From Patescibacteria group bacterium (GTDB taxonomy: Bacteria > Patescibacteriota > CPR2 > UBA1875 > CAIMLA01), in contig JBGSPL010000004.1 in the NCBI GenBank assembly GCA_041738615.1, positions 65,203-129,202 on the forward strand: a stretch of DNA of 64,000 nt, in the 5' to 3' direction. The position numbers and the translations under genes are program-made. Shown here in pieces: positions 1,225 through 51,400 of this stretch. Position 1 is the stretch's first letter. The number at the start of each line of letters is the position of its first letter. A model generated the notes under the pieces. That model made no database searches. It saw only the letters and a list, made by a program, of their open reading frames with translations, and was not told the origin of the DNA.

Positions 1225-1607
1225 TTCATCTCCTCAAGTATAGCAATAGCTTCTTCAATATTCTCGACGATTCGACCTGTTTTCCGCACGAATTCTATCG
1301 ACCAATCAATGCGTTCTTTTGGCCAAATAATTATTAGGTTTTCGCAAAAATCACCAGGACTTTTTGTATGGGTTGCGATAAAGTAGCCGACTTCTATCCA
1401 AGTCCCTTCACAAGGTGTTGTCCCTGTGCTGGCAATTAATATGTCAGCTTGTTTTACGGCCGAGAGATCATCGGGGTAAAAGGTTTCGGAAGATGATTGG
1501 TTGGAATGGAGTTCGGGATCAAAAAAGTCAAAATCTTTAACTTTGGAGATTTCATTCTTCCACTTATCATATTCTTTAAATTGTCCCGCTAAATATACCT
1601 GCTTCAT
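1221..1607 (-). CDS. YtoQ-like / nucleoside 2-deoxyribosyltransferase-like family protein
   Basis: N-terminus MKQVYLAGQF.. and Rossmann-like pattern typical of YtoQ/NDT-like proteins. Confidence 0.55.
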   Translation of the reverse strand: MKQVYLAGQFKEYDKWKNEISKVKDFDFFDPELHSNQSSSETFYPDDLSAVKQADILIASTGTTPCEGTWIEVGYFIATHTKSPGDFCENLIIIWPKERIDWSIEFVRKTGRIVENIEEAIAILEEMK

Positions 1608-1662
1608 GTCAGCATTATAACTTAATTTGGCCTAAATCTTAAGTTAAATGGGGTAAAACGAG

Positions 1663-1696
1663 AAGAGCCCCTCCGCCGAATGGCGAAGGGGCTCCT
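1663..1696 (-). terminator. GC-rich hairpin (gagcccctccgcc/ggcgaaggggctc) at left boundary of high-GC segment; probable terminator of minus-strand island operon
   Basis: 13-bp stem with one mismatch, followed on minus strand by U-containing tract. Confidence 0.45.
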
Positions 1697-1739
1697 TGGT
1701 AGTTCCTCGTGGAACTGTGGTACAAGCAGCTGCGTGCTA

Positions 1740-2006
1740 CTAGACGGTCGCGTCCTGCGACTTGTGTTGGTTGCCTCTGCTCTGCCACCACTCCTTCAGA
1801 TGATCCTCTACCCAACCAGCGCCCATAAGAAGCGCGCCGCAGGCGAAGATGAGGACCGTACCGAGTGCCGGGACCAGAAAGAAGGTCGTGACGTCGGGGG
1901 CGGTCTGGAGCTGGAGCCGAACCATCAGGAACTCGAGGAAGAAGAGTCCGGCGTAGACTTCGCCCACGACCCTAGCGTTCCCCCAGGTGCTGCGGATGAA
2001 TTTCAT
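1740..2006 (-). CDS. small 2-TM membrane protein (island gene C), unknown function
   Basis: 88-aa ORF with strongly GC3-rich codons and SD aaggaggcgg upstream; inside high-GC segment. Confidence 0.45.
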   Translation of the reverse strand: MKFIRSTWGNARVVGEVYAGLFFLEFLMVRLQLQTAPDVTTFFLVPALGTVLIFACGALLMGAGWVEDHLKEWWQSRGNQHKSQDATV

Positions 2007-2043
2007 GATCTTCCGCCTCCTTGGCGAGAGTGGCGTGCCTGCT

Positions 2044-2430
2044 CTAGTTGTCCTCCTGATGAATGACGCGCAGGGCGACTTCGCAGACGGGTTTCAAGTC
2101 GCTGTCCAACTCGATGTTGGCCTCGATGAAGCCACCGAGACCAGTAGTGGTCTCTGAGCTGGCGAAGGTGTGGGCCTTCTCGTCGTAGGTGAACACCCGG
2201 ACGAAGAAGTGCGGCAAGACGATGTGATCGGCCCCTTCGGCCATGCCGATATAGGTGACCTTGGTCTCCGCGACGAGCACAACGCCTTCGCCGTAGCAGA
2301 CCTGACCGTCAACCGCTAGCGTGCCTCCTACCACTTTATTGATGGCGAACGTGATGGCGGCCTTGATCTCCTTCTCCTTCTCAGAGTAGTCGTCGCCCTC
2401 GTGGACGACCATTTCCTGGAGCCGCTTCAT
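2044..2430 (-). CDS. hypothetical cytoplasmic protein (island gene B)
   Basis: 128-aa GC3-rich ORF, tightly spaced between genes A and C. Confidence 0.45.
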   Translation of the reverse strand: MKRLQEMVVHEGDDYSEKEKEIKAAITFAINKVVGGTLAVDGQVCYGEGVVLVAETKVTYIGMAEGADHIVLPHFFVRVFTYDEKAHTFASSETTTGLGGFIEANIELDSDLKPVCEVALRVIHQEDN

Positions 2431-2456
2431 GGTGTTGCCTCCTTGGCGAATCGTAA

Positions 2457-3026
2457 TCAGCAGGCGAATTCGGATACCGTGACCTTGATGTTGAAAAGAA
2501 CCTCGCAGTCCATGCCTTCGTCGATCTTCTTGATGTCGGTGATGATTGCCGTGTAGGCCTGAAACCCGCAGAAGTTGACCATGAACCCGATGAATACCGG
2601 CTCAGCCGTACCGCGCTTGGCGCGGACTTCAGGGGTCCAAATCTCAGTGCACACGATCTCGAGATGGCCCTCATGAGCGTACAGCTCACGCAGGCTCTCG
2701 GTGTCGAGCAGGTAATCCAATACCTTCTCTTTCATGTAGCGACTGATGTGACAGGTCTTCAATGGCTCCAGCTGGAACTCGAAGTCGAGGCTTCCACGCT
2801 CCTGCTGATACTGATCCTGGATCAGCTCAACCTCCGGTCGGGGCTTGCGGAGTCGTTCGATCAGCGCCCCAAGGACTCGCTTGATCTCGTCGCCTTGTTC
2901 GTTGACGTTCTGGGCTTCTCCTTCTTCGAGTCTTGCGCCATCGTAGACCGCGTCCACAACCTTGCCGAACTGGAGACCTTTCGGGTCTCGAGACGTGATC
3001 AATGCCGCATCGGGCATCGTCATCAT
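2457..3026 (-). CDS. hypothetical cytoplasmic protein (island gene A)
   Basis: 189-aa GC3-rich ORF; no recognisable domain by eye. Confidence 0.45.
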   Translation of the reverse strand: MMTMPDAALITSRDPKGLQFGKVVDAVYDGARLEEGEAQNVNEQGDEIKRVLGALIERLRKPRPEVELIQDQYQQERGSLDFEFQLEPLKTCHISRYMKEKVLDYLLDTESLRELYAHEGHLEIVCTEIWTPEVRAKRGTAEPVFIGFMVNFCGFQAYTAIITDIKKIDEGMDCEVLFNIKVTVSEFAC

Positions 3027-3261
3027 CTCCTTTCAGCTCTAATCCTGCTTTTTGAATGCAGAATTCGTGCTCCCCAATGGAGCACTATGTCCCTACGGGA
3101 CAGTAACCAAGTTACATGTATGCAAACTGATTACTGCCTCGAAGGATTTTGAAGGTACAATAACAAGCTACTATACCACGAAGAATGCCTATTTGTCAAC
3201 CGTTTCGTGGCTACTCTGGGCGGTTCGAGTCCCACGCGGTTGCAACAAAAAAACACGGATT

Positions 3262-3298
3262 CTTGCGAAAACGTGTTATTTTTTGTGCGTGACTTCAG
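3262..3298. terminator. intrinsic terminator hairpin (aacacg...cgtgtt flanked by A/T runs) downstream of tRNA-Asp
   Basis: aaaaaaacacggattcttgcgaaaacgtgttatttttt. Confidence 0.6.
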
Positions 3299-3327
3299 GC
3301 ATTCCGGTCACACAGAACGAACAAATT

Positions 3328-3405
3328 TGGCGATCCAGATGGGACTCGAACCCACGACCTCCGCCGTGACAGGGCGGCGCTCTAACCAGCTGAGCTACTG
3401 GACCG
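3328..3405 (-). tRNA. tRNA-Asp (anticodon GTC)
   Basis: Reverse complement folds as cloverleaf: acceptor CGGTCCA/TGGATCG, anticodon loop cCTGTCAc, T-loop GGGTTCGAGTCCC, 3' CCA encoded. Confidence 0.9.
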
Positions 3406-3624
3406 TGTGAGCAAAGCGGCTGCTTTGCGAACATTCTTTGGTATATTTCGATGAAGGCAGATGCGCTGTCACCGCTATATATCGGAGTAATTATAGCGTA
3501 TTTTGCCGACTATTTCAAGAGTAATGAAAAACTATTTCCAACCATATATTAAGAATAAAACATTGTAAAAAGCGAGAAAAGGTGGTATCATACTGTTTCG
3601 TGTCCATCCAGGGGAAGGAATCAT

Positions 3625-3996
3625 ATGTGTCGAGGTCTGCGGATTCACAGCCACACGGCTGAAGGCATCACGGTCCTTGAGGTTCGCCTCGAAGGTCTCT
3701 GCGACGGAAACATGGTCTACGACCTTGTCATGTTGCGCGATCGTCTGCTCAACCAAGAGGATGCCGATGTCATCATTGACGCCAGCAATGCGTTGGTGAT
3801 GCCGGGTGCGCCCGAAGGCGTGCTTATCTCTCTCGGGAGAGAGCTCGCGCAGCGAGGCAAGATGCTTCACTACGTAGTGGGGAACGACAACCGGCCCAGC
3901 ATGGCTGATCTGACTACGAAGTATCGGGGCATTTCGTTCCACAAGACCCTGACTTCGGCGTTGGAATCGGCCGGAGCGGTCACGGTCGCGGCATAG
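3625..3996 (+). CDS. STAS-domain protein (anti-sigma-factor antagonist-like)
   Basis: 123 aa; VLEVRLEGLCDG...VIIDASNALVM...FHKTLTSALES pattern typical of SpoIIAA-like STAS; GC-rich; SD ggggaagg upstream. Confidence 0.55.
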   Translation: MCRGLRIHSHTAEGITVLEVRLEGLCDGNMVYDLVMLRDRLLNQEDADVIIDASNALVMPGAPEGVLISLGRELAQRGKMLHYVVGNDNRPSMADLTTKYRGISFHKTLTSALESAGAVTVAA

Positions 3997-4136
3997 CTGC
4001 GAAGACGGGGCACCTGCGCATAGCAGGTGCCCTGCGTCCATTTATGATACAAACGTTAATTATATAGCTGACAATATCGTTTTTTCGTGGTAGAATGGCT
4101 TCGACATGCACTTTCCGACGCCTATAGGAGGCAACC

Positions 4137-4847
4137 ATGGAAGGGCCATTTGCACCTGAAATCATGCCTCCGTTTATGCGAGGCGAAGATGTGCGGAAGA
4201 GCACGCAGTTCTACTGGCGACTTGGCAGGATCGTCGACATCATCTCGTCGGCAGCCTTCAAGTTTGCCATCGATGGGCTCGAGAATCTGCCCGACGACAC
4301 TGGAAGTGTGTTGGCGCCGAATCACGACAACGCGTTCGACCCAATCCTAGCTTCGCTATTGCACTGTTCCTGGTGCCTGCCGATCCACTGGCTGGCGAAG
4401 ATCGAGCTCTTCGGTGAGCTGCGTTTTGAGGTTGGTAATCGTCTCATCGTGATTCCCCCCGGGAAGATGACCAAGTTCATGTACGCTGTGCGCTGTATTC
4501 CGATCACTCGCGAGAAGCCAGAGCTCCAGTCCTTCAAATCCGTGAAGGCCATACTGGGGAATGGTGGAGTCGTTGGTATCTTTCCCGAGGGGACGCGGAA
4601 CAAGGACGGCAAGAAGGAGACTACGAGCGATCTGAAGGGCGGCGCGATCAAGTTCGCCCAGATGGCGGGCGTACCCGTGGTACCGCTCTTGATGAAATCG
4701 ACGATGCCGTCACTCTGGCCGCTGCGCCGAGGGACATTCGTCATCAAGTACGGCATACCGTTCCTCCCGACTCGTGATCAAACGATCGAGGAGCAGCTCG
4801 AGATGCTACGCCAGTCCATGGCCTCACTCGGCTGCTTCGACTACTAG
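4137..4847 (+). CDS. 1-acyl-sn-glycerol-3-phosphate acyltransferase family (PlsC/LPLAT)
   Basis: H(X4)D motif APNHDNAFDP and FPEGTR motif; GC-rich codons. Confidence 0.8.
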   Translation: MEGPFAPEIMPPFMRGEDVRKSTQFYWRLGRIVDIISSAAFKFAIDGLENLPDDTGSVLAPNHDNAFDPILASLLHCSWCLPIHWLAKIELFGELRFEVGNRLIVIPPGKMTKFMYAVRCIPITREKPELQSFKSVKAILGNGGVVGIFPEGTRNKDGKKETTSDLKGGAIKFAQMAGVPVVPLLMKSTMPSLWPLRRGTFVIKYGIPFLPTRDQTIEEQLEMLRQSMASLGCFDY

Positions 4848-4983
4848 GCCACCAAGGAAAGGATGCTCGATGAAAGAGCCACCCGATCCGCGGTGGCTCT
4901 TTCTGTACCCAACTTTATCTATAAATGAAGCAGCCCCCATCGCAATATTGCGATGGGGGCTGCGCGTTTCGTGTGGTCCCTTA

Positions 4984-5799
4984 CTAAGGGACTGTCGTGG
5001 AAGTCGACGCAGACCAGTGTGCTTGGTACTTTACCGGAATCTGGTAGTCCGCGTCCTCGTAGTCGACTTGGATATGGAAGTCCGCCTCGCTAGCTTTCGC
5101 GGCCTCGTTGTTGTAGATCTCAGCGTTCAGGTCCCGATCTACCGCGAGGGCGTGAATCTTGTCCCAGGTGAGCTTTCGTTGCTCGGCGACTAGGGTAGCC
5201 GACAGGGCGCCGTCGTACGATGTGGCCACGTCTAGGACGGCGATTTCTTCATCGATGTCTCGTACTTTGCGGTGCATTTCGTGGAACCAGAGTGCTTCCT
5301 TCTCGAGAGCGGGGACGTAGATGTCGGTGAACGTCGTCGTCTCTAGCTCATCCATTCCAAAGAACTTGTCTATAGTCCTGAAGCGCTCTTTCGAGACCTC
5401 GATACGGGGGTTGCGTTCATTCTTGACGTAATACACAGTAGGGGAGCCAGTGACTTCGGTCGACTCCCCTCGCACGTAGATCGTGGCCGTCCTCGGCTGG
5501 CCCTCAGTACTGCGAGACACTACGTAGTAGGGCTTCCCTGGGATACGGTCGAGAGAAGCTGTTTCTTTGACCTGTGGGACTGTGAAGAGCACGCTAAGAC
5601 CCGCTACGCCAAAGACGATGATCAGTAGGACGGCGATGCCCAGGGAGAACGCAAAGGCACTGCTAGCCCTGACCTTCTTCGGCCAGTCCCGGTCGTTGCG
5701 AAGTCTTCGGTAGATCAAGGGGGCTCCTACGGCTGTGATGAGGAGCCAAACCAAGAACGTCAGTGACAGAGCAGTGATATGGATGCCGAGAATGTACAC
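4984..5799 (-). CDS. membrane-anchored hypothetical protein (2 N-terminal TM helices plus extracytoplasmic domain)
   Basis: 271-aa GC-rich ORF; right end of high-GC segment. Confidence 0.45.
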   Translation of the reverse strand: MYILGIHITALSLTFLVWLLITAVGAPLIYRRLRNDRDWPKKVRASSAFAFSLGIAVLLIIVFGVAGLSVLFTVPQVKETASLDRIPGKPYYVVSRSTEGQPRTATIYVRGESTEVTGSPTVYYVKNERNPRIEVSKERFRTIDKFFGMDELETTTFTDIYVPALEKEALWFHEMHRKVRDIDEEIAVLDVATSYDGALSATLVAEQRKLTWDKIHALAVDRDLNAEIYNNEAAKASEADFHIQVDYEDADYQIPVKYQAHWSASTSTTVP

Positions 5800-5914
5800 G
5801 GTGTGTCCTTCCGTCGATGGATTTTGGAAACGCGCACCAGCATTTTACTATGAGAGAGCGTTTCTGTCCATATATTCAATCTATAATTAAATTCAAATCC
5901 ACTAAAGATTAAAG

Positions 5915-7882
5915 TTAGTTCAGATAGTCCTTGAATAGGTTTCTCTTAATAAGTGTACTTACCGCCTTGTCGATTTCGGCCCTCTTGGTCAGTAGTGTGT
6001 TGCATTCTGCGATTTCGAGTTCCGTTCGCTTCTTGTCGACGTATTTGCTGCAAGAAAGAGAGGTGTTGTTGTTTAGATAGCGAAGGTTTTCCGAGTAGAT
6101 TTGCTCGTAGTTATCATCAAAAGTATTGGTGTAGAAGAAGGGGGGTTCGCTGCCAAAGAGATCCCGGCCAAACATCGGGGAGGTCGGCTTGGCTCCAACC
6201 AGGTTGAGGATAGTGGGCATAATGTCGAGGTGCGAACTAGGGCTATTAATCCTCTTACCAGTCGTCTGGGCAGGAAGCTTAATGACTAGCGGTACTCGTT
6301 TTCCGGCGAGAGAATCTGGCTCTATCCTCGTTGTATCTGTATCGAAGCCGTCAAAATGGGCAGTATGATCGCCGTATAGCACGATTAGTGAATCGTTGTA
6401 GAGGCCGTCTGCCTTTAGCTTCTCAAAAAACTTTCCGAGGCTGGCATCGGTATAGTGGACTGCCTGTAGATAGTCATGGGTAAGGCTCGTGTATTTGTCG
6501 CGATTTAAAGTGAGAGTTTGATACTCCTTTGCCATCTCGAAGGAGAAATGGCTAGACAACGTAATTAGGTAACTCAGAGTGGTAGTAGGAGTAGCTTTTA
6601 TGTAATCGGCTGACTGGAAGAGGAAGTCTTCGTCCGAGAGTCCCATATTGACCGTTTTACCTGGCTTGTAATTGTCGGAGGCCATGAATCTATCGAACCC
6701 AAGCGACTTGTACATCGTGTTTCGGTTCCAGTACCCACGGCTGTTTGCGTGATATGCTTCGGTGTTGTATCCGCTCTTCTTGAGCTCCTTTTCTAAACTG
6801 GTAAAGCTATCCTTGGCGTACTTTACAAAGACAGAAGAGTCGGCGAGTGGGTAGAGAGAGGTATTTACCGAGAAATCAGCATCGGAGGTGCCGCCGGCGC
6901 CGAGTGTAAAGTAGTTGTTGGTAAAATAGTTTGAACCGGAAATTAGTTTGTTGATGTTCGGTGTGATTTCTTGTTTTTCGACCGACGCACCAATATTGAA
7001 ATCATTCAGAGACTCTACTTGGACCATAATGACACGCTTACCAGCAGCTATTCCGGTGGTTTTATTGGGTGCCAGCTTGGTTGTATTGGCTTTTAGCGTC
7101 GCGATGGTTTCTTCTTTGTCTAGAGGGCTGAGGTTGGTAAATGCCACTACAAAATTACGTGAGAAATCGAGAAGATGAGTGCTGATAACGCCGATATTCT
7201 TGGCCACCACCTTGTTCTCCGAGGTCTGGTTATAGAAAAAGGGCAGCTTGGTCGCAAGGTCGCTATAGAAGATGGCAAGGATCGTTGCGATAGGGAGCAC
7301 AGCTACAGCGAACCTTGCCTTTTTGCTGAGGCGACTCACTGGTATCACAGGGAAATCGATGCGTTTACGACGACGCCTGTGGATCCATATAAAGATGATA
7401 TCTAGTATCAGGATAATGTCGGAGTAGGACACTAGCTTGCTTATCCATGACGGCAAATCGGCAATTAGCTGCCCTCCCGTCCCGAGCATGCTCATCACAG
7501 GCAGGGTACCAAAGAAGCGGATGTAGTAGCTATCTCCGAGAAGAACTAGTGTGAGTACGATATCCATAACGAAAAGGTAAGTGGCTCGGCGCCCTCGGAT
7601 AAAGAGCTCAGGAATGGCTATGACCCAAGCAACCACCAGACTATATGCGAGGAATGGAACGAGGTTTTCCGCGTTGGGCCACAGATCGTTCGTGGCGCTA
7701 AAAATCACCAGTTTCACAAAGAAAATGAGGGCAAAAGTAATGACGATACGCTCTCTCACGTACCTGGATTCGTCCACGACTGTTGTTTTGTGGGGAGACC
7801 AGAATTTATGGAGCTCCCTGGGAATCGATTTTATATATTTACTTAATTTCATCCCAACTATAGTAACAAATTTTACGGACAA
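5915..7882 (-). CDS. LTA synthase family protein (LtaS-like sulfatase/phosphoglycerol transferase); start uncertain (TTG at 7882 or ATG at 7852)
   Basis: N-terminal multi-TM region followed by sulfatase-like domain with YGDHTAHF and GGTSDADF motifs. Confidence 0.75.
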   Translation of the reverse strand: MSVKFVTIVGMKLSKYIKSIPRELHKFWSPHKTTVVDESRYVRERIVITFALIFFVKLVIFSATNDLWPNAENLVPFLAYSLVVAWVIAIPELFIRGRRATYLFVMDIVLTLVLLGDSYYIRFFGTLPVMSMLGTGGQLIADLPSWISKLVSYSDIILILDIIFIWIHRRRRKRIDFPVIPVSRLSKKARFAVAVLPIATILAIFYSDLATKLPFFYNQTSENKVVAKNIGVISTHLLDFSRNFVVAFTNLSPLDKEETIATLKANTTKLAPNKTTGIAAGKRVIMVQVESLNDFNIGASVEKQEITPNINKLISGSNYFTNNYFTLGAGGTSDADFSVNTSLYPLADSSVFVKYAKDSFTSLEKELKKSGYNTEAYHANSRGYWNRNTMYKSLGFDRFMASDNYKPGKTVNMGLSDEDFLFQSADYIKATPTTTLSYLITLSSHFSFEMAKEYQTLTLNRDKYTSLTHDYLQAVHYTDASLGKFFEKLKADGLYNDSLIVLYGDHTAHFDGFDTDTTRIEPDSLAGKRVPLVIKLPAQTTGKRINSPSSHLDIMPTILNLVGAKPTSPMFGRDLFGSEPPFFYTNTFDDNYEQIYSENLRYLNNNTSLSCSKYVDKKRTELEIAECNTLLTKRAEIDKAVSTLIKRNLFKDYLN

Positions 7883-7927
7883 TGGTTAGGTTGCCGTGAT
7901 GCGCAAATATTCTGGTATAATCGTTCT

Positions 7928-9091
7928 ATGAAAAGACTACGAGTCGTAACACCACTGATATTTCTCTTCGCAGTCGCTACTGGCTACTTTTTGTATCTTA
8001 CTTTCAGCGGGCACATCACACCGAACCCAGTATCGGACGCGGTAGTTGCTAGCGTACGTCCCTACCCAACACTGACAAGTCCAAAGAATGTAACCTTGAA
8101 TTGCGATTATCATGGCGAAAATGTTGCAGTGACCGAAACTCTCTACGGCAGTCTCGCGGACTACTATCGCAATAATCCAGCCAAATACAGTGCCTTCTAT
8201 CACAACCAGAACGAGAAATACGTTTTTAGCTACAAACAAGACCCCACTATCTCTGACCTCACCAGCAAGATTAAGAAAATAGGGGTAGATAAAGGGCTGG
8301 ACAGGGATCGAACGCTCGATTTGGCAACGTGTTTACTGCAGAGTATCCCATATGATAATGAAAAGGCAGCACGAATTCTGAGCCCTGACTATTACAAACT
8401 AGCGGCCAATCAGTTAGTGCCACGCTACCCGTACGAGACTCTCTATGAAGGTAAGGGGATCTGTACCGATAAGTCGTTTCTAGGAGCGGCAGTATTTCTG
8501 GAGCTTGGATACGGGACATCGCTGCTCACTTTTGACAGCCAGCGCCATATGTCTATCGGGGTCTCGGTTCCCGACGGGATGGGTGACTTTGGGACGGATT
8601 ATGGCATAGTGGAGCTTACCGGTAGTAATTTCCTAGTAGGAGATATCCCTGAGATTAGTGGCAATGCTGGCCTTGCAGTGGGCGGAGTCCAGACTATACC
8701 GAACGTGACAACGGATAGTACTGTCGCTGCGGAAAATAGAACGGTCCTCTCGGCGCTTAGTGCTACAATTCCAATTTCCTCTGGCGCTATCTATAGCCGT
8801 ATAAGTGCAAGGATGGCTCTAAAAAACGAGATATCTACGCTTCAACCCCAGCTCGCGAGCAGCAGGAGTAGCTATTTAAATCTAAAAGCCGCCCTCACGG
8901 CCTCAGAGGAGGAGCTTCAAAAAACTGAGTCTAGCTACAAGCAGAGTCCGACAAGCGCGAGCTATTCTCGCTATACGACATCGTATAATTCGTACCTTAG
9001 CGCCTATAATGCCGCAACCACTGCCGTTGATGAATACAACTCACTCGTAAACAAATACAACGAGCTAGTGGCTAAGTACAAGGAATTTTAG
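7928..9091 (+). CDS. membrane-anchored protein with transglutaminase-like (Cys-His-Asp) core and low-complexity S/T/Y-rich coiled C-terminus
   Basis: GKGICTDKSFLGAAVFLELGYGTSLL...QRHMSIG resembles transglutaminase-like cysteine protease fold; assignment tentative. Confidence 0.4.
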   Translation: MKRLRVVTPLIFLFAVATGYFLYLTFSGHITPNPVSDAVVASVRPYPTLTSPKNVTLNCDYHGENVAVTETLYGSLADYYRNNPAKYSAFYHNQNEKYVFSYKQDPTISDLTSKIKKIGVDKGLDRDRTLDLATCLLQSIPYDNEKAARILSPDYYKLAANQLVPRYPYETLYEGKGICTDKSFLGAAVFLELGYGTSLLTFDSQRHMSIGVSVPDGMGDFGTDYGIVELTGSNFLVGDIPEISGNAGLAVGGVQTIPNVTTDSTVAAENRTVLSALSATIPISSGAIYSRISARMALKNEISTLQPQLASSRSSYLNLKAALTASEEELQKTESSYKQSPTSASYSRYTTSYNSYLSAYNAATTAVDEYNSLVNKYNELVAKYKEF

Positions 9092-9151
9092 TTGAGAGAA
9101 TGGCTGATTTCTGTTAAAATAGGCGTTGTTTCCAGCTAATTTCTGGGAATT

Positions 9152-9204
9152 GGGGTCCCCTAAAATTCGAAGCATTTTAGGGGAGGAGGAAGTGCAGTGA
9201 CAGG
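9152..9204 (+). repeat. tRNA-upstream conserved hairpin element, copy 1 (GGGGTCC - 10-bp hairpin - AGGAGGAAG.GCAG), 53 nt upstream of tRNA-Gly
   Basis: cccctaaaat/attttagggg perfect stem; homologous copies at 9430..9480 and 24070..24122 with covarying stems. Confidence 0.5.
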
Positions 9205-9256
9205 GCGTAGTAAATATCAATTAGTATTTACGGAGCGCGATAGCTCGTACTGAAGC

Positions 9257-9330
9257 GCGGGTATAGTTTACCGGTAGAACGTGACCTTCCCAAGGTCGAG
9301 AAACGGGTTCGATTCCCGTTACCCGCTCCA
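9257..9330 (+). tRNA. tRNA-Gly (anticodon CCC)
   Basis: Acceptor GCGGGTA/TACCCGC, anticodon stem TGACC/GGTCG, loop ttCCCaa, T-loop GGGTTCGATTCCC, CCA encoded. Confidence 0.9.
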
Positions 9331-9429
9331 GCGTCAGCGTAAGCTGACGCACTACACGAGTTAGCCAAAGGCTAATCATTTCGTGCTATCGCACGCCTCC
9401 TTTTCCGAGAAAACCTTGCGGTTTATCTC

Positions 9430-9480
9430 GGGGACCGACAAAAATGAAGTTTTTGTCGGAAGAGGAGGAATCGCGGCAGG
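9430..9480 (+). repeat. tRNA-upstream conserved hairpin element, copy 2 (GGGGACC - hairpin ccgacaaaaa/tttttgtcgg - AAGAGGAGGAA.GCGGCAGG), 53 nt upstream of tRNA-Thr
   Basis: Same architecture and flanks as copies 1 and 3. Confidence 0.5.
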
Positions 9481-9532
9481 ATGAAGACGTTGAATTTCTT
9501 CAATCGTCGGAATCCGAAAGCGGATTCCGACG

Positions 9533-9607
9533 TGCCGATGTAGCTCAGGGGTAGAGCAGCACTTTCGTAAAGTGTTGGTCGGTGGTTCGATTCCACTCAT
9601 CGGCTCC
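9533..9607 (+). tRNA. tRNA-Thr (anticodon CGT)
   Basis: Acceptor GCCGATG/CATCGGC, D-arm AGCTCAGGGGTAGAGC, anticodon loop ttCGTaa, T-loop GGTTCGATTCC, discriminator U, CCA encoded. Confidence 0.9.
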
Positions 9608-9646
9608 AGTAATATCATTTGAAGTTGGATTGGAATATAATACAGA

Positions 9647-10043
9647 TATGTCGAAGCTTACGAAATTATTTGAAAAGTATCGGACAAAAGCAATCCATGA
9701 TTTTGGGACTTCTTTTTATCATGATCCTGTGATGTTAGGGATGGCCTCTCTATTTGTGGTGCAATTAGTTTCATTACTGCTACTCCTAATATTCCGTGTG
9801 CAACCCGGGTCCGTTGTGCCACTTACCTACAATGTAGTTTACGGGGTTACCTATTCGTCTACATGGTTTGGGCCGTATTATTATCTTCTAGCTCTTGCTG
9901 GTTTTGGAGTGATCAACTATCTGATTGCATGGGCTTACTTTGACAAGGAGCGCCTGCTTTCTTACCTGATTGCGTGCGTGAACATCTTACTAGCGGCACT
10001 GATGATCTTATACATCTTTAACCTTACCGCCCTGGTCTCGTAA
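9647..10043 (+). CDS. small polytopic membrane protein co-transcribed with GT2 glycosyltransferase (stop overlaps next start, taATGa)
   Basis: Start taken at ATG 9647 (MSKLTKLF...) because the ORF-track start at 9582 lies inside tRNA-Thr. Confidence 0.5.
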
Positions 10044-11671
10044 TGAAGAAAGACCTTGTAGATAACCGAGTATTTACCCGATTTTTGGAGATTGCGCCCG
10101 GCTTTGTGGCGCTTTCTTACCTTATTCTACCTTTTCTATTGGCTCCGACTTTCCCTATAGTAGTCGCGTATTTCATCTTGGCTTTTAACTTTTACTGGTT
10201 TATAAAGGCCATAAATATCATGAGGCATATGATAAACGGTTTTAGGCACATGTGGCACGATATGAAGGTGGATTTTCTGTCTCGCGCCAAGTTGGCCACG
10301 AGTAATCCCGCCAAGCTAGAAAAGGAGCTGCGGGATAAGTACGAGAAGAGCAACAATCGTCTGGATTATTTGGACTGGTTGGAGTTTTCGCATCTCGAGG
10401 GTAGATACGACAACATCAAAAACTGGGAAGACGTCTATCAAGTTGTCTTTGTTACTAACTATCAGGAAGAGTATTACATCACGGAATCTACTTTTCAGGC
10501 ACTGAAGGACTCTAATTTTCCGAACGATAGAATCATCGTGGTATCCTGCGGCGAAAAGCGTGATGAAGAAAACTACCTTCAGGTCCAGGCCGAGATCGAA
10601 AAGAATTTTGGCGGGGTATTCCGCGACATGCATTTCTACATGCACGATGTAATGCCGGATGAGGTCATCGGCAAAGGTGGAAATCTCTACTCAGCCATGA
10701 CTAAATTCTACAAGGTATTTAAGGAAAAATATTCTGACGTTCGTCCTGAGAACGTGATTTGCACGACCCTCGACGGAGACCATATCCCGCACAAGGAGTA
10801 CTTTGCAGAGATCACCTATAAGCACATCATCGATCCCGACCGCGATCGAAAGACCTACCAGCCAAATATACTAATGTTCAACAATATTTGGGACGCTCCG
10901 TCTCCAAGCCGAGTGTTAGCGGTAGCTTCTAGTTTTTGGCAGATGGTGGAGTCGATGCGACCTTACCGTTTGCGTACATTTGCTTCCCACTCGCAGAGCC
11001 TAGCTACGCTAATCACTACAGATTTTGTATCGCGATATACAATCGTTGAGGATGGCCACCAGTATTGGCGCACCTACTTTGCATTTAACGGAAATCACGA
11101 GATGATGCCGATATATGTTCCGATTTATCACGACACAGTACTGGGGAACAACTTCTGGGAGACGCTCAAGAATCAATACAAACAGCGCCGCCGCTGGGCT
11201 TGGGGCATCTCGGACTTTCCATTTATCATCAAAAACTATATGCGCCACCCAGAAATCCCTTTTTGGGAGAAGTTTATACAGACCTACCGCCATGTCGCAG
11301 GGCACATCTCTTGGTCCACCTCGTCTTTCCTACTGGCCTTTGCCTGGATACCCCTCCTTTTTAACAGTTCTTTTCAAGACACAGTGCTTGCACATAATGT
11401 ATCTATCTATAGCTCGATGATGCTCAAACTGGCCTGGATTGCGGTCTTTGCCAACGCCTGGCTCTACTTCCTGCTTCTGCCACCGCTACCAAAGCGCTTC
11501 GAGAAAACGCGAGTTCTGCGCTATGCCGGAATGGTCTTCCAGTGGGCGATTGCTCCCTTTGTACCGATATTACTTTCATCATTACCTGCCCTAGAGTCGC
11601 AGATTCGGTTAATGTTTGGGCAAAGCCTAAATGTTTTTTGGACGACACCGAAGGTCCGCGGCAGGGACTAG
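10043..11671 (+). CDS. family 2 processive glycosyltransferase (cellulose-synthase-like)
   Basis: N- and C-terminal TM helices, TLDGDH (DxD-like) and QRRRW (Q.xRW) motifs. Confidence 0.8.
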   Translation: MKKDLVDNRVFTRFLEIAPGFVALSYLILPFLLAPTFPIVVAYFILAFNFYWFIKAINIMRHMINGFRHMWHDMKVDFLSRAKLATSNPAKLEKELRDKYEKSNNRLDYLDWLEFSHLEGRYDNIKNWEDVYQVVFVTNYQEEYYITESTFQALKDSNFPNDRIIVVSCGEKRDEENYLQVQAEIEKNFGGVFRDMHFYMHDVMPDEVIGKGGNLYSAMTKFYKVFKEKYSDVRPENVICTTLDGDHIPHKEYFAEITYKHIIDPDRDRKTYQPNILMFNNIWDAPSPSRVLAVASSFWQMVESMRPYRLRTFASHSQSLATLITTDFVSRYTIVEDGHQYWRTYFAFNGNHEMMPIYVPIYHDTVLGNNFWETLKNQYKQRRRWAWGISDFPFIIKNYMRHPEIPFWEKFIQTYRHVAGHISWSTSSFLLAFAWIPLLFNSSFQDTVLAHNVSIYSSMMLKLAWIAVFANAWLYFLLLPPLPKRFEKTRVLRYAGMVFQWAIAPFVPILLSSLPALESQIRLMFGQSLNVFWTTPKVRGRD

Positions 11672-23422: not shown

Positions 23423-24055
23423 ATGTTACTACTCAAATTCATCCAATTTCCAGAGCTTATTCTATATATTCCGGTTTCACTGATTATCGGTATTACAGTT
23501 CATGAATTTATGCATGCTTGGACTGCGAATTTTCTTGGCGATCCAACTCCCAAGAAGTTCGGCCGTCTGTCCTTAAATCCTTTGGCTCACCTAGAGCCCA
23601 TCGGTACCCTGGCACTTCTGTTTCTCGGATTTGGATGGGGCAAGCCCGTACCTGTAAACCCAAACAACTTCAAGAATCCACGTCTTGGCTCGGCACTTAC
23701 TTCGATAGCAGGGCCGCTGACTAATCTGCTCGTTGCCGATGTACTGGCAATTGCATACCGTTTTAGCGGGCTTACTACCTCTACTTTGGGTGGCAGGGTA
23801 ATCTTGGCAATCATCTTTTACAATCTACTACTAATGGTGTTCAATCTGATCCCGATACCTCCGCTAGATGGTGCAGGGTTTGTGGCACTTTTCTTCCCCA
23901 GTTTCGATAGCGACAAGTTCCACCAGATTGGGCCTATAATTCTGATAATCATCCTGCTTTTTACGGGATTTACCTTCATATTGCCGATACTTTTCTATAT
24001 TCTCAAACTTATCGGTATAAACCCCACGAGTATCTACTTCCTATTCTCCGGTTAG
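23423..24055 (+). CDS. site-2 protease family (peptidase M50) membrane metalloprotease
   Basis: HEFMHA (HExxH) and LIPIPPLDG motifs. Confidence 0.8.
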   Translation: MLLLKFIQFPELILYIPVSLIIGITVHEFMHAWTANFLGDPTPKKFGRLSLNPLAHLEPIGTLALLFLGFGWGKPVPVNPNNFKNPRLGSALTSIAGPLTNLLVADVLAIAYRFSGLTTSTLGGRVILAIIFYNLLLMVFNLIPIPPLDGAGFVALFFPSFDSDKFHQIGPIILIIILLFTGFTFILPILFYILKLIGINPTSIYFLFSG

Positions 24056-24069
24056 CGATTATTCGTTGT

Positions 24070-24122
24070 GGGGGTCCCGAAATCCGTAGGATTTAAGGGG
24101 AAGAGGAGCAGCCACGAAGTGG
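24070..24122 (+). repeat. tRNA-upstream conserved hairpin element, copy 3 (GGGGTCC - hairpin cccgaaatcc/ggatttaaggg - AAGAGGAGCAGCC), 51 nt upstream of tRNA-Pro
   Basis: Same flanks as copies at 9152 and 9430; stem sequence differs but pairing is preserved. Confidence 0.5.
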
Positions 24123-24172
24123 TGAAGTAATCGGCATTGGCGAATTATTGAACATGTAGTGTACTGCGACGA

Positions 24173-24248
24173 CGGGGTGTAGCGCAGCTGGTAGCGCGTA
24201 CGGCTGGGGGCCGTGAGGTCGCAGGTTCAAGTCCTGTCACCCCGACCA
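24173..24248 (+). tRNA. tRNA-Pro (anticodon GGG)
   Basis: Acceptor CGGGGTG/CACCCCG, anticodon loop cTGGGGg, T-loop GGTTCAAGTCC, CCA encoded. Confidence 0.9.
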
Positions 24249-24396
24249 CGTCATAACAATATTCCAATAATCGCAGACCATCAAGGTGGCTGCTTTTATT
24301 TACATATTATTATTCCTTTCCGATCAAAACAGTCGTTTCGATCGGGTACCGAGGAGACGGTGCAGGCGAGGGGGTTTTTCTGCTATACTATTTACT

Positions 24397-25722: not shown

Positions 25723-26115
25723 GTTCAGCTAGCTAGACAATCGCCCCTTCGGGGGAGGAAAGTCCGGGCACTACATGATTGGAATAGTTGCTAACGGCAA
25801 CCGGTCGTGAGGCTAGGGAAAGTGCCACAGAGACAAAACTGCCGATGACCCGTAAGGGCACAGGTGATGGTGAAAAGAGTGAGGTAAGAGCTCACAGTGA
25901 GTAGTGGTGACACTATTCAGAGGTAAACCCTATTTGGTGCAAGACAGGTGGGCTAGGGTAAGGTCGATATGATCGCCTTGGGTAAAATCCAAGGCAGTCT
26001 CTAATTCGAAAAAGTTGTAATCAGAACCCCTTACCTGCGGTCCTGTCGCGTAGATAGATGATTGTCAGATCCTAGTAATAGGACGAACAAAACCCGGCTT
26101 ACCGGCTAACTGAAC
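25723..26115 (+). ncRNA. rnpB: RNase P RNA, bacterial type A
   Basis: P4 signature AGGAAAGTCCGGGC near 5' end and ACAAAACCCGGCTTA near 3' end; P1 pairing GTTCAGCTAGC/GCTAACTGAAC; about 393 nt. Confidence 0.85.
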
Positions 26116-26120
26116 ATTAA

Positions 26121-48494: not shown

Positions 48495-51400
48495 TTGCAC
48501 CAACACGCATCGAAGATTTCTTGGTATAGAAAGTGGCATGATTTTCGCTATGCACACCATGTGCATGTTGCGGCTCTGATTGGGTATGTGATTGCCCTCG
48601 GCGTATTTCTCGGGGCAAATTATTATATCGCTCCGGGCAAGGCATTCGCTGCCAACGGTAACTTTAGCCAAACGACTTTCAGTGGATCTGATGGAACTTA
48701 TACCAACACAACACCTATCAACTCCGGTGCGGATGTGGCCCTGAACCCGGTGCTTTCTAACGCCGGAGGCTCGGGCTGGCTTTATAAAAGACCAATCACT
48801 GTGACTAACGGATCTGGTGGTCCCCTGACAGATTATCCGGTAGCGGTTACTCCGTTTAGCGACTCGACCTTTGTAAACAACACCAGCCTTAACGGATCGT
48901 GGCATTTTTCGGAAGGAGCGGGCACCACTACCGTAGATAAATCCGGGAACGTCAATTCCGGCACTATGAATGGCACTAGCTACTGGACAGCCGGGGCCAC
49001 CGATGGGAAATCGGGCTATGGTTTTAACGCCGTGGCTGCTAACAGCAACTTTGTGAATGTCCCTGATAGCACGAACTTGAAATTCGGAACTGGTAATTTT
49101 TCAGTTTCGGCCTGGGTTAAGCAAACCAATACCACGGGGACACAGAATATAGTAACGAAAGGCGTTTCAGGATCGGGCATCTCCTACCTTCCAATCTATC
49201 AACTTGCCATTGTTGGTGGTAAAGTGTCGGCCTATGTTGACGGTAATAATGCTAGCGGACAGCATTACGCTTCATGCACTGGTGCAACAACCTTATCAAC
49301 GGGGACTTGGAACTTGGTCACCCTAGTTAGGACTGGCGCAACAATCTCTACTTATTTGAACGGAAATGCAACCGCAGAATGTTCTTATACCGCTGTTGCT
49401 TCAACCGGCAGTTCAGATACTACTGAGCCACTAATGATAGGCAGGGAACGACATACCAGCGCGGGTTATCGGAACTATTTCAATGGAGTAATAGACGATG
49501 TAAAGGTTTATGGACGGGCTTTGGCCGGAGCTGAAGCCGCGGTTAATTATGGAGCCACTGGAACAACTAAGATTCGCACCGATTTCCAGGACATTAGGTT
49601 CGCTAACTCGGTGACGGGGGTGGAATATCCTTATTGGCAAGAAAATGACGGAAAATTTTGGGTTAAGGTCAACAGCTTACCGAATGGCACGAACACTAAT
49701 TTTTTGAATATGTATTATGGAAACGCTAGCGCTACCCCGACGAGTAATGGTTCCAATATTTTTGCACTCTATGATGATTTCGAAAGTTACGGAATCGGTG
49801 CATTGGGCACCCAGGGGGGCTGGGTTAGTTCAGCTGGGACCAACGGCTTTGCCAATGTAGTAGCCGGAAAATATTTTGACTCGGGAATCACTAGTGGTAC
49901 TGACGGTCAGGATGGAACGGCAAGCCATGCTATTACGGCTATGAATGCGGGGGAAGTATCCTATCGTTTTAAAAGGGATAGTACGAGTAACAATTATAGC
50001 TATTTCGTGTTATCAGAAGGTGCCACCGCGCGGTTTCAAATAGTAGGAAGCAACAGTGGGGAGATTAAATATATTGGTGGTGCTTACCCTTGGACATCAC
50101 TGTCACCAGTTACGAACTGGGTTAATGGAACGTGGTATACAATTACCGTTAAATGGTATAGCAATAGTACGGCAGATATATATGTGAATGGTGTCCTGAA
50201 GAAAACTGCAGCGGCATTTGGCACATCTATGGTTACGGCTATTGATAAAGTTACGTTTACGACTAGCAGCAGCGGTGATCCGCACTCCATTCATTTGGGA
50301 ACGGATGATGTAAGAGTTCGAAAGGCCACGACAACGGAGCCGACCCATACAGCCCCGGGCACAGAGGTTGCAGCCTATAATACTACCGGCTCATATACGA
50401 CCGCCGTCCAGGCTCCTGCCGGAGTCTATAACTGGGGCGCACTTACTTATACAAAAACTACTCCTGGTTCTTCGACGGCAACAATCGACGTTTTGAACGG
50501 CACAAACGATGCTGTTATTTCATCTAATGTGGCCAGTGGGACTAATCTCAACCTATCTGGGCTGACATACCCCTCATTGAAAATAAAGGTGAATTACACG
50601 ACCTCTGCAGTCGGTAACATCCCGACCCTTAGTCAGTGGGACCTGGTTTATAGCGCAGACACTACCCCGCCAAGTGTCCCAACCGGGTTAACGATAGGGA
50701 CAGCAACTTCTAGCGCAATACCCCTTACATGGTCTGGCGCAACAGATGGCGAATCTGGGGTCCTCGGATATGAGATTTCAAGAGCGCCAGACTCGGCTGG
50801 TAATCCTGGCACCTGGGCGGCGGTGGCTACTGATTCTCCTTGCTATGGAGCAGCAGGAGTTTTGAATGCTATAAGCTGCACGGATAGCTCAGTTTCCACC
50901 CCCTTATTATCGAATTCTAAATATTTCTACCGAGTGAGGGCAAAGGATAATGCTGGTAATTTTTCTGGTTATTCTGGGGAGCAAAATGTTGATGCGAGTA
51001 CAGTGGGGCTTTGGCATCTGAATGAAGGTACGGGAGCAACAACGGCAGATTCGAGTGGTATTAATCAAACAGGGACAATGAACGGCACTAGTTATTGGAC
51101 TACTGGAAAGGTGGGTGGTGGACTCGCGGCTAACACAAATAATAACACTTCAGTTACTAGCACCGCAGCTTTAAAGCCCTCAAATTTTACAGTCGAAGCT
51201 TGGTTTTATGCTACCAGTGACCAAAATAGTAAAATTTTAGTTTCAAAATATGCTGCTCTCCCAGCTGACTATGAAATATCAATAGATGTAAACGATTACC
51301 TGAACGTAAGGTCTGATACCGCAGGATCAGTCGCTTACTATGCAACAGACAATGTCGTCTTTACAAATTATTTGAATGGCTGGCACCATGTTGCCGGGAC

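Follow-up and report, generated by a model that had tools for sequence, protein, structure and literature searches.

Why should hairpins of one design, each with a different stem sequence, stand upstream of three different tRNA genes at a nearly constant distance from each of them? The question is raised by a stretch of 64,000 nucleotides (nt) from a Patescibacteria group bacterium (assembly GCA_041738615.1, contig JBGSPL010000004.1, positions 65,203 to 129,202; hereafter the window), in which an earlier reading of the bare sequence, the original prediction, had noticed a hairpin motif of about 50 nt before the genes for tRNA-Gly, tRNA-Thr and tRNA-Pro. Each hairpin is helix P1 of a full-length copy of a structured element of about 107 nt, the last base of which touches position +1 of the tRNA. 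Hence the constant spacing that had been pointed out is real, yet it is not a spacer but simply the remainder of the 105–107-nt element reaching the tRNA.

The hairpins and the unit they belong to

The window contains exactly three matches to the pattern GGGGWCC-N(18-32)-GAGGAG, at 9152, 9430, and 24071 and without exception on the + strand, against a mean of 0.03 matches in dinucleotide-preserving shuffles, none of 100 of which reached three; the three-locus motif is thereby confirmed. Each match forms a hairpin of 10–11 bp whose stem is unlike in sequence between copies while its pairing is kept, the paired strands being CCCCUAAAAU/AUUUUAGGGG, CCGACAAAAA/UUUUUGUCGG, and CCC-GAAAUCC/GGAUUU-AA-GGG. 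When the three regions are aligned, their similarity extends all the way to the tRNA, and the three copies align over their full length with copies from phages that are described below. The motif first noticed, real as it is, represents only the 5' half of the unit, and the weak "GC.G..CAGG" flank attributed to it is actually the 5' strand of helix P2 with its internal loop. From 5' to 3', the element of about 107 nt consists of GGGG-N, the P1 hairpin, AGAGGAGGAG, P2, GGA, P2a, the P3 hairpin set between variable segments, P2a', GRA, P2', and GACGACGA. In a shorter rendering, it is GGGG-N-P1-AGAGGAGG followed by a long irregular hairpin (P2, the GGA/GRA internal loop, P2a, and P3) and then GACGACGA. 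Its length ranges from 99 to 114 nt in Saccharibacteria and from 103 to 124 nt in phages.

That the stems covary as those of a selected structure, as originally claimed, is strongly backed by an alignment of 46 sequences (43 phage copies and the three window copies), from which RNAalifold recovered P1, P2, P2a, and P3, with compensatory changes at 23 of the 28 predicted pairs. In the annotated structure 85.3% of the cells are paired versus 41–48% when the partners are slid by 1–3 columns, the cells with double changes number 245 versus 33–76 in the slid controls, and the covariation score is 0.456 versus about 0.1 in the controls; none of 500 column shuffles reached the observed values. Helix P2a alternates between A-U/U-A and G-C/C-G, with a 20:20 split, and the GAGGAG tract and its neighbours are invariant or nearly so across the 46 copies. 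The purine tract GAGGAGG lies opposite the 3' tail GACGACGA, columns 45/123 and 48/120 being invariant G-C pairs that enclose tandem G-A juxtapositions, and in the five or six sequences in which GAC is changed to UCC the pairing of tract and tail turns Watson-Crick. Tract and tail may form a further helix, "P0", which stays a suggestion because near-invariance leaves no covariation for testing.

Single-sequence folds reproduce the two-domain shape with z-scores of -1.5 to -6.5 (-3.5 for sense copy 1, -4.4 for sense copy 2, and -6.5 for the antisense copy next to tRNA-Pro). Comparison of the two strands shows the stabler fold on that of the element itself for 49 of 50 phage copies and 15 of 16 Saccharibacteria copies, antisense ones included. 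Because the own strand folds better even in antisense copies, the structure would belong to the element and not to the tRNA transcript, and it is probably on the element's own strand that the fold is maintained, although own-strand stability is weak evidence given that G-rich strands generally fold better.

The element does not correspond to any family that we compared it with. Among the 4227 models of Rfam 15, which include riboswitches, the T-box, HDV-like (hepatitis delta virus), hatchet, pistol, twister, and hammerhead ribozymes and phage motifs, none matched at the gathering threshold; in the window Rfam returned only tRNAs and RNase P, with nothing credible overlapping the elements at E ≤ 10, and it found no match on five phage loci, nor on the copy of locus L100 at E ≤ 10. 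Terminal inverted repeats are lacking, as the ends GGGGNCCCC (5') and GACGACGA (3') are not complementary in the 46 aligned copies; no flank is repeated, as in a target-site duplication, around 12 Saccharibacteria and 50 phage copies; and the left end has no conserved 4–5-nt target immediately 5' to it, since the preceding 15 nt are unrelated among 50 distinct copies. Nor is there an intrinsic terminator in the sense copies, in which P1 is followed by AGAGGAGG with no U-tract. The element lacks the defining features tested for a miniature inverted-repeat transposable element, for an IS200/IS605 derivative, and for an intrinsic terminator, and it matches no Rfam family. An HDV-like fold was also considered and rejected by inspection, for the 5' GGGGNCC has no downstream complement.

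Placement and turnover at tRNA ends

Orthologous loci were taken from relatives whose neighbouring proteins are 49–85% identical to those of the window, and the covariance model R1, the E-values of which are rough, was run without filters on the window. R1 gives 16 matches, 15 of them distinct, in the window and in the relatives L004, L005/L240, L237, L239, and L243. In all 16 the 3' end of the element points inward and lies 0–1 nt from the mature terminus of a tRNA, the junctions reading ..GACG(A/U)/tRNA+1 for sense copies and tRNA..CCA/CGUC.. for antisense copies; relative to the acceptor stem, the offset is 0 nt on the 5' side and 4 nt (NCCA) on the 3' side. Antisense copies follow tRNA-Gly and tRNA-Pro in L004, and tRNA-Thr in L005, which has the same sequence as L240. 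In L237 a sense copy precedes tRNA-Gly while antisense copies follow both tRNA-Gly and tRNA-Thr; L239 has an antisense copy after tRNA-Gly and a sense copy before tRNA-Thr, and L243 a sense copy before tRNA-Gly and an antisense copy after tRNA-Thr. In this Saccharibacteria clade, then, the 3' end of every copy falls within 0–1 nt of a mature tRNA terminus.

Searching relatives with a covariance model, a step that the original prediction had itself put forward, thus brought further copies to light, each 0–1 nt from a tRNA terminus, and among the four roles then proposed the closest was a small repeat family targeting tRNA-proximal sites, for 15 of 15 distinct copies (six genomes) touch a tRNA end. 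It had also been right that tRNA-Asp, tRNA-Val, and tRNA-Leu lack the element: The model finds no copy beside them, and they never carry one. What had been missed is the true size of the unit, its antisense copies, and its connection with phages. A search of 519 kb in 48 mostly unrelated genome loci gave E < 0.01 only in the relatives L004 and L005, and nothing better than E 0.7 in the rest; a metagenome scan with the 387-residue protein encoded upstream returned one distant locus only. The features of the window are listed in table 1.

Table 1. The element, the tRNA genes that it adjoins, and associated features (positions within the window)
Feature	Position	Strand	Remarks
Sigma70-like promoter, TTGAGA-17-TAAAAT	9092..9120	+	Upstream of copy 1 and tRNA-Gly; 10/12 consensus matches, TG extension; consensus match only
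Sense copy 1	9150..9256	+	Ends at tRNA-Gly +1; R1 53.1 bits, full length (1-108); seed member
Copy 1, P1 hairpin	9157-9183	+
Copy 1, AGGAGGAA	9184-9191	+	Followed by the P2/P3 hairpin
tRNA-Gly(CCC)	9257..9330	+	CCA encoded; ARAGORN, Rfam
Diverged antisense copy (Gly)	9331..9439 (model match 9332-9439)	-	Adjoins the tRNA-Gly CCA (model match one base past it); 3' end ..GCUGACGC; R1 25.4 bits
Sense copy 2	9428..9533	+	Ends ..UUCCGACGU at tRNA-Thr +1; R1 50.7 bits; seed member
Copy 2, P1 hairpin	9435-9459	+
tRNA-Thr(CGU)	9534..9608	+	ARAGORN, Rfam
Sense copy 3	24068..24172	+	Ends ..CUGCGACGA at tRNA-Pro +1; R1 58.0 bits; seed member
Copy 3, P1 hairpin	24076-24099	+
tRNA-Pro(GGG)	24173..24248	+	ARAGORN, Rfam
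Diverged antisense copy (Pro)	24249..24352	-	Directly past the tRNA-Pro CCA; 3' end ..UAUGACG; R1 29.2 bits, E 2.5e-6
RNase P RNA, bacterial class A	25725-26117	+	190 bits; TTGACA-17-TATAAT promoter just upstream, terminator after

Both antisense copies of the window are full length and lie outside the seed of the model. The one after tRNA-Gly (E 2.8e-5 in the window) has orthologues in L004, L237, and L239 and a truncated remnant in L233; the one after tRNA-Pro has its orthologue in L004 (18887-18990, 35 bits), and on the + strand its P3 reads by eye as a terminator-like hairpin followed by UUUUAUUU. The 5' end of the element, GGGGNCCCC, is a palindrome, and at 9428-9439 its GGGGACC is shared head-to-head by the antisense Gly copy and the sense Thr copy, so that the transcript of the Gly–Thr spacer is predicted to fold as one long imperfect hairpin (z-score -7).

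The copies differ between close relatives in a manner that, judged from the sequences, amounts to duplicative turnover. Although the tRNAs of L004 and the window are identical and their flanks about 95% so, L004 lacks all three sense copies; the sense Pro copy is missing also at the orthologous site of L160 and L001. The genes for tRNA-Gly and tRNA-Thr are 1 nt apart in L005, L240, and L243, while one or two copies lie between them in window-like genomes. Identity between the window's Pro copy and the Gly copy of L237 is about 90% over the first 42 nt or so of the former, the sense Thr copy of the window resembles antisense copies of L237 and L239, and in L237 a block of about 220 nt, in which a linker of 23 nt joins an antisense copy to a second copy, occurs after the CCA of both tRNA-Gly and tRNA-Thr.

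Other insertions are found at tRNA genes of the relatives. In L001, a relative of about 80% identity, the native tRNA-Pro(GGG) is split (10633-11070, orthologous to window 24055-24260), its first 15 nt and last 14 nt or so flanking an insertion with two hairpins, an open reading frame (ORF) for a GIY-YIG endonuclease of 84 amino acids, and a different, intact tRNA-Pro(GGG). To judge from these parts, the insertion looks like a homing-endonuclease cassette bringing its own replacement tRNA; as a source of the element it was discarded, for the two have no sequence relationship. Only a 3' remnant of the native tRNA-Pro is kept in L003, and in L166 (2034-2160) a variant tRNA-Pro is preceded by a different leader of about 120 nt with a perfect 17-bp hairpin, no GGGG or GAGGAG motifs, and no R1 match. 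The 5' flank of tRNA-Pro is by all appearances a hot spot for unrelated structured insertions. At tRNA-Asp(GUC), a large serine recombinase gene adjoins the tRNA in some relatives (L239, 959-2598; L245, 5411-6992) and is accompanied in L243–L245 by genes for a relaxase and the coupling protein of a type IV secretion system, which suggests an integrative element at a tRNA that never carries the 107-nt element. In the window, tRNA-Asp and tRNA-Leu have plain sigma70-like promoters and short leaders. The window also holds an ORF of 2369 amino acids (48495-55604, +), very large for a Saccharibacteria genome.

The family in phage, prophage and plasmid DNA

The element is not confined to Saccharibacteria, for uncultivated tailed-phage, prophage, and plasmid DNA of gut Clostridia type has members of its family in many intergenic regions. 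A loose pattern of the element gave mostly noise on IMG/VR contigs, from which true look-alikes were picked by a descriptor script (GGGG, a hairpin of at least 8 bp, RGGAG) that was run on all fetched sequence. A strict 21-base pattern is present in 69 IMG/VR stretches, versus about 0.5 expected by chance on our own estimate, and yielded 50 distinct copies; a second pattern, anchored on the 3' end, is present in at least 120 stretches and added more variants of P1. Model R1 has 105 matches at E ≤ 0.001 in these 69 loci, often with several per contig. There are six copies in L202 and at least 10 in a single structural module of L204 (IMGVR_UViG_3300029579_000236, 1414-9870), where they lie on the + strand in nearly every intergenic gap and include tandem pairs 37–100 nt apart (7121/7262, 8244/8456, and 9616/9806). 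Within multi-copy contigs the strand of the copies is uniform in 15 cases and mixed in three, orientation having been judged by this consistency because the stop-to-stop ORF test is uninformative at high GC content.

The phage copies occupy gaps between co-oriented ORFs. In nine of the 50 distinct copies the upstream ORF stops about 51–56 nt inside the element, and in most copies the start codon of the next gene, or that gene's own ribosome-binding site, follows 0–25 nt past GACGACGA; about half have an AUG 7 nt after the Shine-Dalgarno-like tract, in a reading frame that is not conserved. The genes downstream are diverse, encoding a DUF2800 nuclease, a ClpP-type prohead protease, a head-closure protein, capsid, tail fibre, DNA polymerase, primase, and a Mob relaxase, and portal genes too are among those between which the copies are scattered. 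A Pfam census of 103 phage ORFs of 340–520 amino acids portrays ordinary tailed temperate phages, with serine recombinases and integrases common in the loci. Transfer RNA genes number none in 633 kb of element-bearing phage loci, and one, unrelated to the element, in 630 kb. Because the family in phage DNA never adjoins a tRNA, no tRNA-specific regulatory role is indicated for it.

BLAST searches of GenBank phages and PLSDB plasmids recovered only three human-fecal "Bacteriophage sp." records and two replicons of Subdoligranulum variabile, in which full-length copies (OY725878.1, 157089-157203; OY725877.1, 28565-28671) are 72–75% identical to a phage copy. This species, with its two large replicons, is the only named cultured host seen for the family. 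In two phage loci, L173 (770-1072) and L207 (2979-3263), pairs of copies converge tail-to-tail around segments of 91 and 60 nt, respectively, an arrangement that mirrors the sense–tRNA–antisense layout of Saccharibacteria; ARAGORN finds no tRNA in either segment, and that of L207 contains a bidirectional terminator-like hairpin.

Two further ideas about the phage copies were tried and dropped. A conserved peptide translated after the Shine-Dalgarno-like tract does not fit with frames and lengths that are not conserved, nor with the lack, by eye, of an AUG in about 40% of the copies. An intron or spliced element was rejected on the grounds that the downstream proteins have their own complete N-termini (DUF2800), even though upstream ORFs sometimes enter the element.

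Origin of the joints with tRNA and alternative explanations

These observations create a problem of origin: By what route did copies of this family come to lie flush with tRNA termini, on either side and in both orientations? The explanation that we favour, and consider on the whole probable rather than secure, is that the element of about 107 nt is mobile and specific for tRNA termini, that its sense copies serve as tRNA leader, and, more tentatively, that its joints with tRNA were made at the RNA level. Judged from its distribution, it would be a non-autonomous, duplicative unit, the sense copies of which are presumably transcribed as 5' leader or spacer of the tRNA, with RNase P cutting exactly at their 3' end. 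This reading of the sense copies follows from their position, given the promoter-like site upstream of copy 1 and the location of copy 2 between co-oriented tRNAs. The sense copies lie on the tRNA strand between a promoter-like site and tRNA +1, L005 has TTGAGG-17-TAAGAT at the corresponding place, just past the stop codon of the upstream gene, and the gene for RNase P RNA is present in the window. The 5'-leader role among the original proposals is therefore right as to position for the sense copies. The older antisense copies would supply trailer hairpins, of which the one after tRNA-Pro looks like a terminator.

The manner of joining is more speculative. The element RNA could be copied from its 3' end onward, primed by the 3'-OH of a tRNA, with tRNA-CCA joined to an antisense element as the product; a change of template from the tRNA's 5' end to the 3' end of the element would produce the converse hybrid, element followed by tRNA; and such hybrids could then enter a tRNA gene by homologous recombination. 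Joining at the RNA level is favoured because the junctions coincide with both ends of the mature tRNA (+1 and CCA-3', 0 versus 4 nt from the acceptor stem), and it is a SINE-like trait (as in short interspersed nuclear elements) that 15 of 15 distinct copies join the tRNA at one of these RNA landmarks within 0–1 nt. A precedent is the Mauriceville retroplasmid of Neurospora, in which reverse transcription starts at tRNA 3' ends and captures tRNA sequences (as summarised in PMC9925561). The bolder proposal that the element is a SINE-like prokaryotic retroposon (tRNA-primed reverse transcription or template switching onto GACGACGA, then recombination), and/or a new 30S-binding module scattered by phages, we hold to be rather unlikely.

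Several points weigh against the favoured explanation. No reverse transcriptase family is among the 25 families listed from the Pfam census of 103 phage ORFs (340–520 amino acids), a list that included every family matched by at least two ORFs; and the analysis, which included no systematic screen of the window, did not identify any enzyme that could mobilise the element, be it a reverse transcriptase, a transposase, or another. The antisense copies after the Gly–Thr operon are conserved down to about 50% protein identity, which would fit a retained function as well. Since the phage copies show no association with tRNAs and abut start codons or ribosome-binding sites, specificity for tRNA cannot be a property of the whole family. 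Moreover, the three sense copies of the window were in the seed of a model that has rough E-values. The evidence for turnover also needs to be qualified, because L233 keeps a truncated antisense copy and the tRNA-Pro leader of L004 ends with ..TGCTGCAGCGA, resembling the 3' end of the element: The absence in L004 may be due partly to deletion, its short leaders perhaps containing 3' remnants of sense copies, so that not every absence represents an empty site.

The main alternative, somewhat unlikely in our judgement and still one to be taken seriously, is that of a functional cis-acting RNA module in which the 5' hairpin and the Shine-Dalgarno-like tract bind the 30S subunit and thereby protect or insulate the downstream RNA; in a variant for tRNAs, sense leader and antisense trailer would pair, through the purine tract and its complement, into a processing stem like that of rRNA operons. 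By our own base-by-base reading, about 10 bp could form between the near-invariant GGAGAGGAGG and CCUCCUUUCU, the 3' tail of 16S rRNA, the GAGGAG region hardly varies among the 46 copies, and many phage copies have a start codon or ribosome-binding site just past GACGACGA, within the 0–25 nt mentioned above. Predicted precursor folds do pair the leader AGAGGAG with the trailer CCUCC/UCCUUU around the cloverleaf (z-scores: Gly, -6.4; Pro, -2.0), antisense copies that follow the tRNA operon have been kept across about 50% protein divergence, and the antisense Pro copy provides a hairpin plus U-tract on the tRNA strand. However, it is hard to see what a stabiliser or ribosome-binding site would do on a leader destined for removal by RNase P, sense copies are lacking in close relatives whose tRNAs are identical, and tRNA-Asp, tRNA-Val, and tRNA-Leu never carry one. 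A cis-acting module also leaves unexplained the 0–1-nt abutment at both termini, the tandem copies, and the presence of at least 10 copies in one phage; and the alignment suggests that the purine tract pairs with the element's own 3' tail (columns 45/123 and 48/120; UCC variants), in which case it may not be free for 16S rRNA.

A miniature transposon or recombination site acting at the DNA level, either a palindrome-associated derivative of a single-strand transposon of IS200/IS605 type or the site of a phage or host recombinase that would recognise the folded, single-stranded tRNA gene on either strand and insert 5' of it, seems distinctly improbable to us. It would accommodate the hairpins near both ends, the want of terminal inverted repeats and target duplication, the strand-specific placement, the palindromic end GGGGNCCCC shared head-to-head by two copies at 9428-9439, and the frequency of serine recombinases and integrases in phage loci; a tRNA gene's complement likewise folds into a cloverleaf, by which insertion 5' of such a fold on one strand or the other would be explained too. 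Yet no conserved target lies beside the left end, and the offset of 0 nt on the 5' side versus 4 nt (NCCA) on the 3' side fits the ends of mature RNA better than a DNA stem. Frequent G-U pairs, covariation in four helices, and invariant single-stranded purine tracts are typical of selection at the RNA level, and the phage copies of a contig nearly always share a strand. Neither TnpA nor TnpB appears among the 25 most frequent families of the census, which covered one ORF size class, no search having been aimed at them.

As for the promoter-proximal regulatory structure or the U-tract-less insulating terminator that the original prediction had also offered, position upstream of tRNAs and stable hairpins speak for them, but we find them scarcely credible. 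The predicted promoter lies upstream of the element and not inside it, no promoter pattern, terminator pattern, or U-tract occurs within the sense copies, the family is found also between translated phage genes, and relatives with identical tRNAs lack the element; on these sequence grounds both readings appear to be contradicted.

How does the element compare with known systems? The STAB-SD or 5' stem-loop stabilisers of Firmicutes mRNAs, such as the leaders of cryIIIA, ermC, and aprE, are single, gene-specific leaders. The element resembles them in that a hairpin a few nt from its 5' end is followed by a Shine-Dalgarno-like tract whose complementarity to the 3' tail of 16S rRNA would be unusually long and which in many copies is not at start-codon distance. 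It differs from them in being a dispersed family of about 107 nt that has, besides, a conserved P2/P2a/P3 domain and GACGACGA as an invariant 3' end, and in being found on tRNA leaders too, for which stabilisation would have no apparent purpose. Small structured intergenic repeats of bacteria include REP/BIME, ERIC, Correia, pneumococcal BOX, and the 107-bp RUP. Like these, the element is short, non-coding, multi-copy, intergenic, presumably co-transcribed with its neighbours, and able to fold stably as RNA; unlike them, it has neither terminal inverted repeats nor target duplication, its copies have diverged with compensatory changes instead of being near-identical, and it is known from two phyla as well as from phages and adjoins tRNA termini with nucleotide exactness. 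Among retroelements, yeast Ty3 and Dictyostelium TRE5/TRE3 are autonomous, with recognition of the RNA polymerase III machinery and insertion tens of bp away. They share with the element the orientation- and position-specific placement upstream and downstream of tRNA genes and the repeated use of one site, whereas the element is 107 nt long, non-coding, bacterial, and flush with the mature ends.

The only precedent known to us for joints exactly at mature tRNA termini is that of the Mauriceville and Varkud retroplasmids. These Neurospora mitochondrial plasmids encode their own reverse transcriptase, which starts at tRNA 3' ends and generates plasmid-tRNA hybrids, as summarised in PMC9925561. 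No reverse transcriptase has been found for our element, and the analogy concerns mechanism only. The non-coding RNA units of UG27 reverse transcriptases, about 135–167 nt long with little conservation of primary sequence, form arrays beside the UG27 reverse transcriptase, sORF, and bORF genes; in gut phages of Bacillota and Bacteroidota they vary in number and combine a basal hairpin with an interrupted main hairpin (bioRxiv 10.64898/2026.09.22.753630). By this description they are akin to the element as structured intergenic phage RNA units of variable number, gained and lost between close relatives. The element departs from the published description in its 105–110 nt, its three near-invariant purine tracts, and its scattering among structural and replication genes. 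In rRNA operons, leader and trailer pair into processing stems, and boxB-boxA leaders have a variable hairpin followed by a conserved single-stranded tract. The element is comparable in that its leader and trailer copies can pair around a stable RNA and a variable hairpin precedes a conserved tract; unlike boxB-boxA, however, its tract is not boxA-like, the pairing is a by-product of inverted copies, and relatives do without the leader copy.

Limited literature searches returned no description of the sequence, of tRNA-flanking elements in Saccharibacteria, or of a matching structured RNA in phages, and we know of no described bacterial element with nucleotide-exact placement at mature tRNA termini in both orientations. 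We class it among the dispersed, structured elements that do not code for protein, as one whose rule of placement is without precedent known to us. A fold with four covarying helices and three near-invariant purine tracts is present in well over 100 phage and plasmid loci and in a lineage of the candidate phyla radiation, and it explains the strong variation of tRNA flanks between close relatives in Saccharibacteria. With a covariance model and clear junction rules, genome-wide surveys now have their tools, and there is a testable handle both on whether RNA-level joining to tRNAs shapes bacterial genomes and on what phages gain from a structured, ribosome-binding-like cassette between their genes. 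If the element were indeed a retroposon, it would be the first bacterial element known to target tRNA termini, shared by phages of Clostridia and Saccharibacteria.

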